Shown here piece by piece: positions 26,670 through 36,495 of a DNA stretch of 64,000 nucleotides (position 1 is its first letter; every line of letters starts with the position of its first letter). Source of the DNA: a bacterium (GTDB taxonomy: Bacteria > Zixibacteria > MSB-5A5 > GN15 > FEB-12); the NCBI GenBank assembly GCA_043811375.1, contig JBDRNJ010000004.1:64001-128000 (forward strand), written 5' to 3'. The translations under genes were made by a program, and so were the position numbers. The notes below the pieces were generated by a model. It did no database searches and was not told the DNA's origin. It saw nothing but the letters and a program-made list of their open reading frames with translations.

Positions 26670-27431
26670 ATGCAGAACACAATTCAACCAATAACGAGGT
26701 TCTTTCTGCTGGTCTCGGTGGTTTGTCTTTGCAATTGTGGCGGCCCAAGAGTTGAAGGTCTTTTCAGAGAGCCGGAGTTCACTGCAGACGCTATCAGAAA
26801 CAGGTCGATAATCATTGGTGGCGTTACCTCTGCTCTTGGCAACGAAGAAATCGATACCTTGTGTAATGTATGGGCCAACCTGCTCAGGGAGCAACTTGTT
26901 GAGAAGCTCGAGGGTGTCAACGTTGTTCCACTCAATTATACCAAGTCAACTCTCCGCGAGGATCAATATGGGGAAATGCTGGTGTCATTTAACAACATCG
27001 GTGACCTAAACAGCGAAGTTCTGGAAAAGCTGGGGGGTGCGTTTGAAGAGCCACGACCATATCTTGTCATGTGCCGTCTGGAAACAGACGCTCGTGACAC
27101 GAGCAAGGGGAAGAACAAAGACAGCACTGGGGCCGTCATCAACGTTTATTACCTCGCACATCGGAAGGTCTGTGCCAGCTTCAAAGTCTGGGATGTGGCA
27201 GCGCGCAAATTGGTTTGGAGCGGCCGAATAACCGGCAAAGCAACGGCAACCAACAGCTACGATCAGGCTCCCGTTACGGATGACGATGGCGGCAGTCTAT
27301 TAACGGATTTGCTTGATGTGTTCCTTAGTGACGGCGAACCTGAAAAATATGAGTACCCCGAAACCCCAAGCTTCACCTGGGTTGCACGAACCGTTTTTGG
27401 TGATTTCGCCAAAGCCCTCACCCACGACTGA
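26670..27431 (+). CDS. Hypothetical lipoprotein
   Basis: GAGG RBS; hydrophobic N-terminus ending CLCNCGG; VWD....LVWSG resembles DUF4136/CsgG-like lipoprotein folds. Confidence 0.7.
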   Translation: MQNTIQPITRFFLLVSVVCLCNCGGPRVEGLFREPEFTADAIRNRSIIIGGVTSALGNEEIDTLCNVWANLLREQLVEKLEGVNVVPLNYTKSTLREDQYGEMLVSFNNIGDLNSEVLEKLGGAFEEPRPYLVMCRLETDARDTSKGKNKDSTGAVINVYYLAHRKVCASFKVWDVAARKLVWSGRITGKATATNSYDQAPVTDDDGGSLLTDLLDVFLSDGEPEKYEYPETPSFTWVARTVFGDFAKALTHD

Positions 27432-27973: not shown

Positions 27974-28723
27974 ATGTCGGGTCATTCAAAATGGGCGACA
28001 ATCAAGAGGAAGAAGGGTAAGGCCGATGCCGAGCGCGGTCGGCAGTTTACCCGGCATATCAAGGAAATAACGATAGCCGCCCGTGAGGGCGGCGGCGACC
28101 CGGACGGCAACCCGCGTCTGCGGACCGCTGTCGCGGCGGCCAAAGCGGCCAATATGCCGGCCGACAACATCAAGCGGGCGATCCAGAAAGGGACCGGGGA
28201 CCTGCCGGGTGTTACCTACGAGTCAGTGGTCTACGAGGGCTATGGCCCGGCCGGGGTGGCGCTGTATATGGAAGTGCTGACCGACAACAGGAATCGTATC
28301 GTGGCCACAATACGCCATATCCTCACCAAGTACGGCGGCAACCTGGGGTCCAACGGCTGTGTCGCCTGGATGTTTGACAAGAAGGGGGTAATCACTATTG
28401 AACTCGACGCCGTAGACGAAGACACCCTGATGGAAGTCGCCACCGAGGCGGGCGCGGAGGATATTACCACCGAGGCAGGTTCCTACGAGGTTATCACGCT
28501 GCCGGAAGACATCGACACGGTGCGCATGGCTATCGAAGGCAAGGGGATTTCGATGGTTTCCGCCGAGGTAACTATGCAACCCCAGAACTCGGTCAAGCTG
28601 GAGAAGGAATCGCAGGCCAACTCAATGCTGAAAATGTACGAGTTGCTGGAAGAGTGCGACGACGTCCAGAAAATCTACGCCAATTTCGATATCGACGAGG
28701 CCCTGCTGGAAAAACTGGCGTAG
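27974..28723 (+). CDS. yebC: YebC/PmpR family protein
   Basis: [43 protein letters not shown]. Confidence 0.96.
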
Positions 28724-28739
28724 TCTGACAGGTCGGAAT

Positions 28740-28807
28740 TGACCTTGCCCCAATAAAGTGGACACTTAACGAAGGTCGTATGAGATTGACCTGAGGAGGT
28801 GTTTTTG
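28740..28807 (+). mobile_element. Remnant IS3-family-like left end (IRL plus leader)
   Basis: TGACCTTGCCCCAATAAAGTGGACACTT...GAGGAGGTG..ATG follows the IS3 IRL pattern as I recall it (TGAtCTTaCCC...AGTGGACAC...GAGGTG..ATG); no transposase or right IR seen. Confidence 0.6.
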
Positions 28808-30457
28808 ATGTCATGGCGCACTTTCAGTGAGGCTCGTGTCTTTGCGAGAGGATTAGGTCTCCGGAGAACCAGGGACTGGCATAAATACTGCAATGGAGGT
28901 TTTCCCGATCTGCCACCGCTTCCTGCTGATATACCTCTGCACCCGTACCATGCCTATAGAAAAAGTGATTGGCAGGGAATGCGAGACTGGCTTGGGGGGG
29001 CATGGCGACCATATGAGAAAGCAAGGACATTTGTACATGCTTTGAACTTAAGACATTGGCAGGATTGGAAAGACTATGTTGATGGTAAGCGTCATGATCT
29101 CCCGCATCTGCCATCCGATATACCTAAGACTCCCCGAAGCGCCTACAAAGATGATGGCTGGCTGGGAACGCGAGATTGGCTGGGTTCCTCATGGCGTCCA
29201 TATGAGAAAGCAAGGACATTTGTACATGCTTTGAACTTGAGGCATTGGCAGGATTGGAAAGACTATGTTGATGGTAAGCGTCAAGATCTCCCGCATCTGC
29301 CATCTGATATACCTAAGACTCCCCGAAGCGTCTACGAAGATGATGGCTGGCTGGGACCGCGAGATTGGTTGGGAGCTAAATGGAAAGAATACTCCGAGGC
29401 CAGAGAATTTGTGAGAAGTTTGGGACTCAAGAGGCAAGAGGATTGGCTGGACTACACTCTTGATAAGCGACCTGGTTTATTGCCTCGTCCAGAAAGTATT
29501 CCAAGGTCGCCTGACACCGTTTATGAAGGTAAGGGTTGGAAGGGCTGGGCCGATTGGCTTGGCACTGACATTAGAGGACTAAAGAAACGCGTCAAGCGTG
29601 CAGGAAAAGCTTGGAAACGTAAATCAGAGTATCTCCCATTCGATGAGGCGCGTAATTATGTAAGAAGCTTGGGTCTTAAATCAAGCCATGAGTGGAATCT
29701 GTTCTGCGGGGGGCAAAGACCACATTTGGGTCACCTCCCTGAGAACATTCCTTCAAGCCCACATCGTACATACCGGATGGACGACTGGATTGGCTATCGT
29801 GATTGGCTGGGTTTATCAGGTTCTGAGCAGCGTTGGAGGCAATGGCGTTCTTTTGACAAAGCCCGCGAGTTTGCACGCTCTTTGGGTTTGAAAACTTGGC
29901 GTGATTGGAGGGAATACTGCAGGGGCGATCATCCGAGTTTGCCAGAACTTCCTGAGGACGTCCCAAAGGCCCCTAGTGTTGTTTATAGGAAGTCCGGCTG
30001 GATCGGAATTTCAGATTGGCTAGGGCACGTTAGATGGAGGGAATACGAAGAGGCCAGAGTGTTCTCCAGAGAGTTGAAACTAGGTTCAGTAGATGACTGG
30101 CGATCTTTCTGCAAGGGCGAGCTACCAGAAGTACCTTCAAAACCACACGATATTCCGACAAGCCCAGCTCAGGTTTACAGAGGGAAAGGTTGGAAGGGAT
30201 GGTCTGATTGGTTGGGAAATCAGGTTCGTGGCAGACCCTGGTCAGGCTGGCGAGACTTCACTAATGCACGCGAGTTTGCACGACTGCTCGGTCTCCGATC
30301 ATACAAAGAATGGGCTAAGTATTGTCAAGGCAAGATCCCAAGTCTGCCATTGCTTCCCGAAGACATCCCTGTTCAAGCCTCGAGAGTATACAGGAATGAT
30401 GGGTGGATTTCATGGCCTAACTGGCTTGGATACACAAGAAGGAAACGGTGTACGTAG
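28808..30457 (+). CDS. Stand-alone tandem-repeat protein with 8 Trp-rich ~63-aa repeats (phage-integrase-repeat-like)
   Basis: Eight copies of W..(F/Y)..AR.F...L.L....W..Y.......P..IP..P...Y...GW.G..DWLG; GGAGG RBS. Confidence 0.85.
   Translation: MSWRTFSEARVFARGLGLRRTRDWHKYCNGGFPDLPPLPADIPLHPYHAYRKSDWQGMRDWLGGAWRPYEKARTFVHALNLRHWQDWKDYVDGKRHDLPHLPSDIPKTPRSAYKDDGWLGTRDWLGSSWRPYEKARTFVHALNLRHWQDWKDYVDGKRQDLPHLPSDIPKTPRSVYEDDGWLGPRDWLGAKWKEYSEAREFVRSLGLKRQEDWLDYTLDKRPGLLPRPESIPRSPDTVYEGKGWKGWADWLGTDIRGLKKRVKRAGKAWKRKSEYLPFDEARNYVRSLGLKSSHEWNLFCGGQRPHLGHLPENIPSSPHRTYRMDDWIGYRDWLGLSGSEQRWRQWRSFDKAREFARSLGLKTWRDWREYCRGDHPSLPELPEDVPKAPSVVYRKSGWIGISDWLGHVRWREYEEARVFSRELKLGSVDDWRSFCKGELPEVPSKPHDIPTSPAQVYRGKGWKGWSDWLGNQVRGRPWSGWRDFTNAREFARLLGLRSYKEWAKYCQGKIPSLPLLPEDIPVQASRVYRNDGWISWPNWLGYTRRKRCT
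29003..29370 (+). repeat. Recent 189-bp tandem duplication (protein repeats 2 and 3)
   Basis: 29003 onward and 29192 onward are near-identical with period 189 nt (about 10 substitutions by eye). Confidence 0.92.
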
Positions 30458-30461
30458 TCTT

Positions 30462-30492
30462 GTCGGAACCGCAGGGTTTCCGACCTACTTTG
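30462..30492. repeat. REP-like palindrome overlapping the nth stop codon
   Basis: GTCGGAACC-gcagg-GTTTCCGAC-CTAC; 29/31 identical to 36418-36448. Confidence 0.8.
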
Positions 30493-31129
30493 GATAAACC
30501 TCCGCCGACGGGCATAACTTCGCCAAAAAACATCTGCCGCATTGCGGCCGGCGGGCGGTGCAGATAGCTCGTCCGTGACAAATCAGCAGGTGTGACCAGG
30601 CTATCCAGTCATCTTTCGGGATTAGCTGTATCAACTCCCGTTCGATCTTGACCGGGTCGTTCTCTTTCGTGAGTTCCAACCGCCGACTGATACGGCCGAC
30701 ATGAGTATCAACCACGATCCCCTCGGCAATATCAAATCCGGCGCCCAGAATCACGGACGCCGTCTTGCGCCCGACTCCCGGCAGCTTCACCAGTTCGTCC
30801 AACCGTCGAGGGATGCGACCACCATAATCGTCACGCAACTGTCGAGCGGAGTTTTTGATAGCTTTCGCTTTATTGTTGTGAAAACCGGTGGCGAAAATGT
30901 CGCGGCCGAGCTCTTTCAGATTGGCATCGGCAAAGGCCCGTAACGAACGGTACTTCCTGAAGAGTGATTTCGTCACCCGGTTAACGCGCTCATCGGTGCA
31001 CTGCGCCGACAGGATTGTAGCCACCATAAGCTGGTGTACGGTTCGGAAATCAAGAGTACATTTGGCGTCAGGATAATGCCGTTTCAACAGACGGATAGCT
31101 CTCCTGGCTCGCGCTGCCGGCGATGGCAT
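30485..31129 (-). CDS. nth: Endonuclease III
   Basis: LSAQCTD, LPGVGRKTA HhH, VVDTHV, C-terminal C..R.P.C..C.L...C Fe-S motif. Confidence 0.96.
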   Translation of the reverse strand: MPSPAARARRAIRLLKRHYPDAKCTLDFRTVHQLMVATILSAQCTDERVNRVTKSLFRKYRSLRAFADANLKELGRDIFATGFHNNKAKAIKNSARQLRDDYGGRIPRRLDELVKLPGVGRKTASVILGAGFDIAEGIVVDTHVGRISRRLELTKENDPVKIERELIQLIPKDDWIAWSHLLICHGRAICTARRPQCGRCFLAKLCPSAEVYPK

Positions 31130-31133
31130 TGCC

Positions 31134-32009
31134 TCAGTCACGTCCGTTACAGCCCAGGGCAACTACCCGGTCGATATCATTGAGGTCTCTGAGAATGACG
31201 ATTGACCGGTAACGATCATCCGTCTCAGTCAGCTTCACAACTCGGTCGGCCTGCCGGTAGCCGATCTCGAACATGATAAGTCCATCTTCAGCCAGATAAT
31301 CGGGAGCGTCGCGCAGGATTACGCGAATGGCGTCCAGTCCGTCTTCCCCGGCCAATAGAGCTGTTTTCGGGTCAGCCAGCACTTCCGGCGGCAGGGATTC
31401 GTATTCGCTGTCGGAGATGTACGGGGGATTGGACAGTATCAGGTTGAACTTTTCGTCGGGGTGGATTTCTGCGAAGAAATCAGACTGGCGAAACTCGATC
31501 TTATCCCCTACGCCCAGTTCCTCGGCGTTGTGATGGGTGATATCGATAGCATCCGGCGAACAGTCGATTGCCAGCACCTCACACTCATCCAGTTCCGCCG
31601 CCACCGTAACGGCAATCACTCCCGAGCCAACACCGACATCCAGCACCCGCGGTTGGGGCAGCCCTTTCTCGTGGACGAAACCAATGGCAGTTTCACACAG
31701 AAGTTCTGTTTCGGGGGTGGGGACCATTACCGCCGGGCTCACGTGAAATTTCCGGCCGTAGAACCATGATTCGCCCAGGATGTATTGCAGGGGGTATCGT
31801 TCGGCCCGTCGTTTGATAATTCCCTGGAGTTGTCCGAGGATGTCCTCGGTCAGCGCTGCCTCGCCGCGTAAATACAGGTCGAGTCGATCAACACCGAGAA
31901 TGTGGCACAGAATGAGTTCAACTTCACTTTTTGCCCGGTCGATCCCGGCGTCAACCAGGACCGCAGCGGCGCGTGAGATGACGGCGGCAAGTCGGTCGGC
32001 CACTTTCAC
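31134..32009 (-). CDS. prmC: Release factor glutamine methyltransferase
   Basis: PLQYILG, PETELL, DVGVGSG, SNPPYI. Confidence 0.95.
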   Translation of the reverse strand: MKVADRLAAVISRAAAVLVDAGIDRAKSEVELILCHILGVDRLDLYLRGEAALTEDILGQLQGIIKRRAERYPLQYILGESWFYGRKFHVSPAVMVPTPETELLCETAIGFVHEKGLPQPRVLDVGVGSGVIAVTVAAELDECEVLAIDCSPDAIDITHHNAEELGVGDKIEFRQSDFFAEIHPDEKFNLILSNPPYISDSEYESLPPEVLADPKTALLAGEDGLDAIRVILRDAPDYLAEDGLIMFEIGYRQADRVVKLTETDDRYRSIVILRDLNDIDRVVALGCNGRD

Positions 32010-36119: not shown

Positions 36120-36495
36120 CCCCCTGCCTCTCCTTAGCAAGTCGAAGGGTGGTTCCAAGCAGCAAGCCGCCATTAATCGCGTAGCGGCAGGGCTTGTCTC
36201 TGCCGGAGGCAAGTCAGAAACAGTGGGTCGGGTTCCGAAGGGAGACTGCCGCAGGCGGACGGAATGAGAAATCCGATAATAGTTCGGCAGGTCAAGCCTA
36301 CTTGGGGCTTGACGTTCATTTTGTCACGCCGCGAGTCGGCGTGACCTACAATAAGTCCCTGGACTGCCAATGGTCGGCGGACGCAAGGCCCGCCTCTACG
36401 CGGAGTTAAGAAATAAAGTCGGAACCACAGGGGTTCCGACCTACTTTGACCAGGTTACAAACGACGCGGCGCACGAGGACGTACGCCGCGCTCAA
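36120..36495. repeat. REP-like palindrome cluster 2 (at least 6 different hairpins)
   Basis: GTAG/CTAC-footed hairpins at 36181, 36323, 36376 and 36418, plus hairpins at 36291 and 36465; modules shared with the 4.1, 30.5 and 45.3 kb clusters. Confidence 0.85.

Follow-up and report, generated by a model that had tools for sequence, protein, structure and literature searches.

A free-standing repeat array between yebC and nth

The window, by which we mean the whole 64,000-nucleotide stretch of DNA analysed here, contains an open reading frame on the forward strand (28808..30457) that is free of internal stops and encodes a 549-aa protein (P0001) made of eight Trp-rich units of the PF14882 type and nothing else. 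The host gene yebC (27974..28723; Pfam PF01709/PF20772) lies 84 bp upstream on the same strand, and the convergent host gene nth, for endonuclease III (30485..31162, reverse strand; Pfam HhH-GPD and EndIII_4Fe-2S), lies downstream. Between yebC and the array are half of a REP palindrome (28730..28739, forward strand; the other half is missing), which is the insertion site of an IS element, and the left end of this IS3-family element (28740..28811, forward strand). A complete REP palindrome (30461..30488, reverse strand; hairpin z -2.95) overlaps the nth stop codon and forms the right border of the foreign DNA. No sigma-70-type promoter was found for the array gene on the forward strand, and transcription reading through from yebC is a possible candidate route. 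Elsewhere in the window, positions 26670-27431 hold a 253-aa lipoprotein-like ORF with no Pfam family and a GC3 of 0.55, below that of its neighbours.

The eight tandem units of about 63 aa reported by a first-pass annotation of the letters were borne out. They fill residues 3-543, with starts at residues 3, 66, 129, 192, 275, 346, 410 and 481, and show 39-55% pairwise identity, except for units 2 and 3 (90%). All eight of the short variable windows quoted there (PYHAY, PRSAY, PRSVY, PDTVY, PHRTY, PSVVY, PAQVY and ASRVY) are present, and the near-invariant scaffold holds in general, although units 1, 5 and 8 depart from the GW.G..DWLG motif. Unit 1 (28814..29002; all units are on the forward strand) resembles the first units of helicase-fused arrays. 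Units 2 and 3 (29003..29380) represent a recent 189-bp duplication or conversion (TRF: 189-bp period, 2 copies, 95%), differing at 12 codons, 6 of them silently, and being identical at the fast-evolving sites described below. Unit 4 (29381..29569) is followed by a strongly basic 20-aa linker (29570..29629) with low pLDDT and of the same length in the helicase-fused homologue P0146; of the basic linkers described earlier, only this one is strongly so, and units 1-4 abut without a linker. The array is completed by units 5 (29630..29818), 6 (29843..30031), 7 (30035..30223) and 8 (30248..30436).

The protein is rich in Trp (n = 40) and basic (K+R 99 vs D+E 71; pI 9.7), with no hydrophobic stretch (Kyte-Doolittle, 19-residue window, maximum mean 0.33). 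Only two residues precede the array and six trail it, hence there is no space for a signal peptide or catalytic domain, as had been claimed. Pfam and PADLOC detected no Mrr nuclease, SF2 ATPase, adenine methyltransferase or TRD domain, and the PADLOC and NCBIfam defence models returned 0 families in both cases. The deviating codon style was also confirmed (GC3 0.45 vs 0.55-0.76 in 10 neighbouring genes). The proposed likeness to PF14882 was recovered at 28.1 bits against a gathering cut-off of 26.5 (E 2.4e-6), a marginal, partial match spanning 26 residues of one unit only, the gene's units being a longer-loop 63-aa subtype. Pfam matches of the repeats to ExoI_C, Fis1_TPR_C and GIDA_C were discounted as short and partial. 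The ORF retains 128 of 128 core residues (family mean 96.5%).

Elsewhere in the genome the repeat unit was not found, and the repeat is carried by 2 of 108 genomes of the same family, including the present one. The sole other genome has a six-unit array-only gene (L037:1288-2568 on G020:C6, also L226:5567-6847) that lies 4 bp behind a PD-(D/E)XK nuclease gene and is 44% identical to residues 183-543; genes near this array are presumably portal- and terminase-like.

An IS3-family left end starts the gene

Bases 28739-28811 are identical at 68 of 73 positions to three IS left ends located at the ends of contigs C20, C30 and C84 of the same genome. The match takes in the terminal inverted repeat (28740-28765, forward strand), the RBS (28793-28799, forward strand) and the ATG, and ends one base after the ATG. 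Intact copies of the IS run on past the ATG into orfA, the start codon of which is the array gene's ATG. Both the RBS and the start codon of the array gene are supplied by this left end (28740-28811), a feature absent from the first-pass annotation. Right ends with the complementary repeat occur at the ends of contigs C1, C14 and C52, with the C-terminus of an rve-type integrase (rve_2/rve_3) on C14, and the element was assigned to the IS3 family on this basis, the pairing of left with right ends being inferred from the inverted-repeat match. TG...CA inverted repeats, an orfA start near the left end and an rve-type OrfB were all observed; the 24-aa orfA stub had no Pfam match.

Most ends of the element lie within REP halves. 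The left ends on C30 and C20 follow the same half-REP as here, and on C84 and C52 the ends are bordered by REP halves. This 28-bp REP family has 51 strand-wise matches in the genome (≤6 mismatches in 28). At least three near-identical copies of the REP-targeting IS3-family element are present in the genome, and a further REP lies at about 36417-36444 of the window. Contigs from two other sequencing runs match 28739-28811 behind a REP half and then continue into orfA. No RNA run was listed. Three DNA runs, each contributing a small share, reached the flanks and the IS end but not the array, and are evidence neither way. Known REP-targeting IS3-family elements, as named in the available text of PMC1525189, include IS1397, ISKpn1 and ISPsy8. 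These likewise have IS3-family ends inserted in a REP palindrome; here, however, the 72-bp left end alone remains, serving the translation start of a foreign gene.

Transport by the IS, or as a composite transposon, was ruled out as no IS right end was found on contig C4, which carries the array. Among relatives, ruvC lies within 1.5 kb after yebC in 13 of 21, and yebC was near nth in 0 of 24; in the present genome ruvC sits on another contig. With the gene order of relatives broken in this way, the locus is a rearrangement junction, in the order yebC, half REP, IS left end, array, REP, nth. No empty site was found, the closest genomes being other genera with a different gene order. At G000:C60:52100-53987 (L145), ruvC is apart from yebC; ahead of it, near the contig end, lie two unannotated ORFs and a short transposase-like remnant, which we take to be IS30-like.

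Relatives fused to a nuclease-helicase

The unit profile matched 7,086 clusters at 50% identity, hence the array is one of many. In the nearest ESM Atlas clusters 29-62% of members have PF14882, and a search of the ESM Atlas with one unit, excluding PF14882/PF26016, gave no match. Architectures were counted in the best 78 genome loci of 421 stretches. Here, 56 arrays were fused C-terminal to an Mrr/SF2 front half, eight were complete array-only genes and six array-only but contig-cut, whilst five had the array ahead of other domains and three had the helicase as a separate ORF. Among the matches listed, 117 of 120 longer homologues were helicase-fused. The usual attachment to integrases or helicases noted in the first pass therefore describes the relatives, whereas the present copy is detached. 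Arrays contained 6-29 units, in agreement with the predicted expandability. Other fusion partners were LAGLIDADG, GntR, SAP and an SNF2-type helicase with Methyltransf_8; the partners are nucleic-acid enzymes or binders, which supports the nucleic-acid link suggested in the first pass.

The front half of the fused proteins (N-terminal 620 aa) fits PADLOC single-chain RM models over the nuclease-motor part only. Complete fused proteins (n = 46) possessed the nuclease motif (n = 45), Walker A (n = 43) and DEAH (n = 45), and an NPPY-type motif in one case. For 20 of the 56 fused loci the 120 neighbouring genes were checked, and no DNA methyltransferase was detected (54 neighbours without a Pfam match); neighbours with a Pfam match were mostly housekeeping genes. 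Around nine array-only loci, no conserved neighbour was seen (33 proteins). The parent class has the same Mrr nuclease and SF2 ATPase front half as Type ISP RM enzymes (LlaGI, LlaBIII; domain order from the available text of PMC4666363), with the repeat array in place of the methyltransferase and target-recognition domain; the array protein of the window has no enzyme part whatsoever. The modification-dependent nuclease-translocase SauUSI likewise combines a nuclease, an SF2 motor and a C-terminal reader, but with one reader domain for methylated DNA as opposed to a diversifying repeat array. Its nuclease type differs from that of the Mrr-bearing parent class.

The Pfam family itself (PF14882 INT_rpt, Integrase repeat unit, formerly PHINT_rpt) shares with the array gene an over-cut-off match and small tandem units on nucleic-acid enzymes, from which the gene differs in having no integrase and in its longer-loop 63-aa subtype. 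In the literature searched (mostly open-access main texts) we found no functional study of PF14882 repeats and no binding data for any family member. The family occupies one table row in PMC8078820, and the repeats are not discussed in the available part of the GMT preprint.

Several further architectures were observed. Loci L089, L090, L102 and L116 have 8-12 units N-terminal to an SNF2-type helicase and Methyltransf_8, L096:669-4859 has DUF4238 after the Mrr-SF2-array protein, and P0037 and P0025 have a C-terminal GntR HTH and an N-terminal SAP domain (below cut-off), respectively. One Lentisphaerae assembly (L060, L051, L064) carries one fused enzyme and two array-only genes, and one Planctomycetota assembly (L053, L063) carries arrays of 29 and 15 units; such multi-array genomes could act as unit reservoirs for recombination. 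Large viral contigs (L117/L118:5440-12374) encode six repeat genes in a row, some of them combined with DUF723/treble-clef zinc modules and ending in a common 50-60-aa tail, and on another viral contig (L122:6028-7143) a LAGLIDADG domain has one repeat unit on either side. PHROGs contained one weak family only, with no function assigned there, and BFVD gave one match at E≤0.001 (unnamed) and weak matches to giant-virus helicases.

Probable descent of the array from a nuclease-helicase tail

The best-aligned homologue of the array protein, P0146, consists of Helicase_C and nine units and is cut at its N-terminus, therefore its Mrr domain is assumed from relatives. The two proteins are 48% identical over 555 columns, in register from residue 1, and the unit spacing 63, 63, 63, 83 is found in these 2 of 339 proteins only. 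Ser-Trp stands at the start of the first unit in 114 of 198 helicase-fused proteins and likewise in the array gene, directly after Met. By sequence comparison, the array gene is likely the detached tail of an Mrr nuclease-SF2 translocase, with its start at the boundary between helicase and array. Over the first six codons it agrees with the orfA start at 11 of 18 bases, hence the exact join of IS and array is blurred. A split gene within the genome was rejected, as neither tblastn nor profile searches found a nuclease-helicase part in this genome (95% complete). The first-pass annotation had set its free-standing array against a fragment of a larger helicase gene, and the locus has something of both: a putative detached nuclease-helicase tail, but intact and with an acquired start.

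When neutral substitution was simulated at 2% divergence, 13% of runs left the ORF open; at 5-6.8% it was stop-free in 0.7-0.2%, where 6.8% is the divergence of the IS end. This end is possibly a diverged variant rather than a decayed one, in which case the age argument for selection on the ORF fails. The conservation of the array that matches P0146 could also predate detachment, from the fused state.

Predicted structure of the units

AlphaFold2 predicted the 549-aa array with a mean pLDDT of 88.9 and pTM of 0.40, with four short helices per unit, whilst unit 6 folded alone, also as four short helices, reached a pLDDT of 93 and pTM of 0.80. The difference in pTM between the chain and one unit suggests independent beads, not a solenoid, and the models are consistent with units that are independently folding four-helix modules. 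The invariant aromatic residues probably belong to the hydrophobic core of this 63-aa fold. No solved relatives of the unit were found by sequence (Pfam, PDB) or fold, the best structural match having Z 2.6, rmsd 3.5 and 59 aligned residues, although the lack of a solved match does not prove a new fold.

Variable positions diversify between sister units and are conserved between orthologues

Sister units within genes were paired by one half of the codons outside the candidate sites, all remaining codons being used for scoring, with a main set of 54 pairs from 25 genes of cellular genomes. This held-out selection replaced a first dN/dS estimate, in which pairs were picked by low synonymous distance and the result was biased upward. 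Positions 23, 43, 45 and 46 showed an omega of 1.7-2.0 between sister units (bootstrap intervals >1), which a codon model put at 2-2.5 (2dLL 12.6-26 relative to omega 1), within the limits of pairwise methods, non-independent pairs within a gene and many multi-base differences. In the same set omega was near or slightly above 1 at positions 19, 20, 42 and 56. At sites 23/43/45/46, codon positions 1+2 differed at 0.43, compared to 0.24 for four-fold sites and 0.23 for adjacent four-fold sites, and fused and unfused genes behaved similarly.

As the candidate sites had been chosen after looking at the data, the test was replicated on 80 metagenome loci with 87 repeat ORFs, which after removal of 19 near-duplicates gave 9 genes and 15 pairs. 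In this small set the difference was 0.54 vs 0.26 (ratio 2.05, CI 1.28-3.19), with omega ≥2 at positions 19, 23, 43, 45 and 46, weakest at 45. Patchy gene conversion behind the fast sites was unsupported, since adjacent silent sites were not raised in either set. The selection signal was obtained from other genes; in the present array, units 2 and 3 are unchanged at these sites.

Orthologous units gave the opposite pattern. In an array-only eight-unit group (11 proteins, one near-duplicate) the candidate positions were kept at 0.64 vs 0.30 for other variable positions, and both position classes were kept at 0.17 in non-matching units. When 30 variable columns were ranked in ten proteins, positions 46, 19, 56 and 45 were the top four and 23 was seventh; position 43, too conserved overall, was left out of this ranking. 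Candidate positions were also better kept in seven collinear fused pairs (0.64 vs 0.41) and between the array protein and P0146 (12/40 vs 11/72). Members of the orthologous group, of about 560 aa with a conserved unit-by-unit fingerprint, include L103:257-1924, which lies upstream of pgk and a fumarase-type gene, and P0015, P0021, P0034, P0046, P0055, P0071, P0076, P0088, P0095 and P0114; they are good candidates for finding a fixed target.

Covariation was seen between positions 19-56 (z 8.5), 43-45 (7.6), 19-23 (7.3) and 45-56 (4.0), and the variable positions are rich in Asn, Arg, Lys, Gln and Ser and poor in Glu. The variable windows picked out in the first pass hold positions that diversify between sister units and are conserved between orthologous units, an apparent zinc-finger-like specificity signature at the sequence level. 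Of its analogies to TALE and zinc-finger arrays, the latter is closer than a two-residue TALE code, given >1,000 residue combinations at 43/45/46 and variation across about half the unit. C2H2 zinc-finger arrays such as PRDM9, in which fast change occurs at recognition codons (PMC3890296, available text), and TALE arrays share with these repeats expandable beads, a fixed scaffold and a few fast non-synonymous positions. Conservation between orthologous units is a further likeness of PF14882-type arrays to zinc-finger arrays, and their units too are predicted to be beads. The PF14882-type units differ, however, in having no sequence or fold relation found to either, no metal-ligand pattern and 63-71 aa per unit. 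They are also far more diverged from one another than TALE repeats. The selection and orthologue conservation suggest that the patch recognises something, which need not be a DNA sequence, as protein sensors yield the same pattern.

A putative modular DNA reader and its alternatives

The best explanation, which we favour at a little under an even chance, is an intact, IS-started array, the detached tail of an Mrr-SF2 protein, that would bind DNA through a small variable patch without cutting it. Each unit likely reads part of a target, and judging by the relatives that target is probably DNA: the identified partners all act on nucleic acids, and both the basic character of the protein and its residue types fit. 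Asn, Arg, Lys, Gln and Ser-type residues are common at base contacts. Positions 19, 23, 43, 45, 46 and 56 would form one recognition patch on each independent four-helix module, and a string of 6-14 units would read a long, rare site. Such a site may let the parent nuclease-motor attack foreign DNA without a protecting methyltransferase, and its composite length would explain an intact nuclease that needs none. The orphan array may occupy such a site as a blocker or repressor, without cutting. A wider proposal, which we regard as doubtful but well short of far-fetched, is that PF14882-type units read DNA sequence in modular fashion, through a fold not yet solved and a residue code of their own, as a bacterial counterpart of zinc-finger arrays. 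The Mrr-translocase fusions would then be methyltransferase-free, long-site restriction enzymes retargeted by unit duplication and swapping, and detached arrays would be cut-free binders.

The gene may instead be a non-functional remnant, in which a recent deletion or recombination joined an IS3 start to a foreign nuclease-helicase tail and the ORF has yet to decay. We consider this rather unlikely, though the locus is a rearrangement junction (yebC-ruvC in 13/21 relatives, yebC near nth in 0/24), the IS body, right end and enzyme part are absent nearby, the repeat occurs in 2/108 genomes of the same family and 13% of simulated neutral copies were still open at 2% divergence. The orfA-like first six codons (11/18 bases) would also allow the join to be an accident of recombination, but that join is in frame and falls simultaneously at the IS start codon and at a domain boundary. 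Also against a remnant, only 0.7-0.2% of neutral copies remain stop-free at 5-6.8% divergence, complete array-only genes recur (8/78 loci), and in one orthologous group of ten the eight units and their fingerprint are retained at 49-79% identity.

The remaining alternatives concern what the patch would bind. The units may respond to the modification or structure of DNA, such as modified bases, ends or single strands, or bind it non-specifically, with a Trp/Tyr pocket and a Type IV-like parent resembling SauUSI. To our knowledge SauUSI has no methyltransferase. A nuclease, SF2 motor and reader make up the SauUSI plan (PMC7913695, available text), and the units are aromatic-rich and basic, but a fixed chemical target leaves the unit- and enzyme-specific fingerprints (>1,000 combinations at three positions) unexplained and the invariant aromatics look more like the core of the fold, making this account improbable. 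It is more improbable still that the patch binds proteins, such as those of phages, as a sensor triggering the parent nuclease-motor and as a decoy or trap when alone. Arms-race selection would fit this equally well, a triggered nuclease needs no methyltransferase, and in Avs systems that bear Mrr, phage proteins are sensed by C-terminal domains of tandem repeats (PMC12236752, available text). However, the units are predicted to be independent beads and not a solenoid, each identified catalytic or binding partner acts on nucleic acids, fused genes are mostly alone among housekeeping genes, and the array protein had no PADLOC match.

The PF14882 repeat was already catalogued; what is new is the capture of an IS start at the boundary of domains, together with evidence for specificity positions that is two-sided and was replicated. 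The variable patch, with its six named positions, behaves like specificity residues in three separate tests. If these positions read bases, the repeats would extend the range of programmable scaffolds for DNA binding and offer a way of restriction that needs no self-methylation. The locus adds a natural version of the array that is free of the enzyme. It is also a clear case of an IS end starting a truncated foreign gene at a domain boundary.
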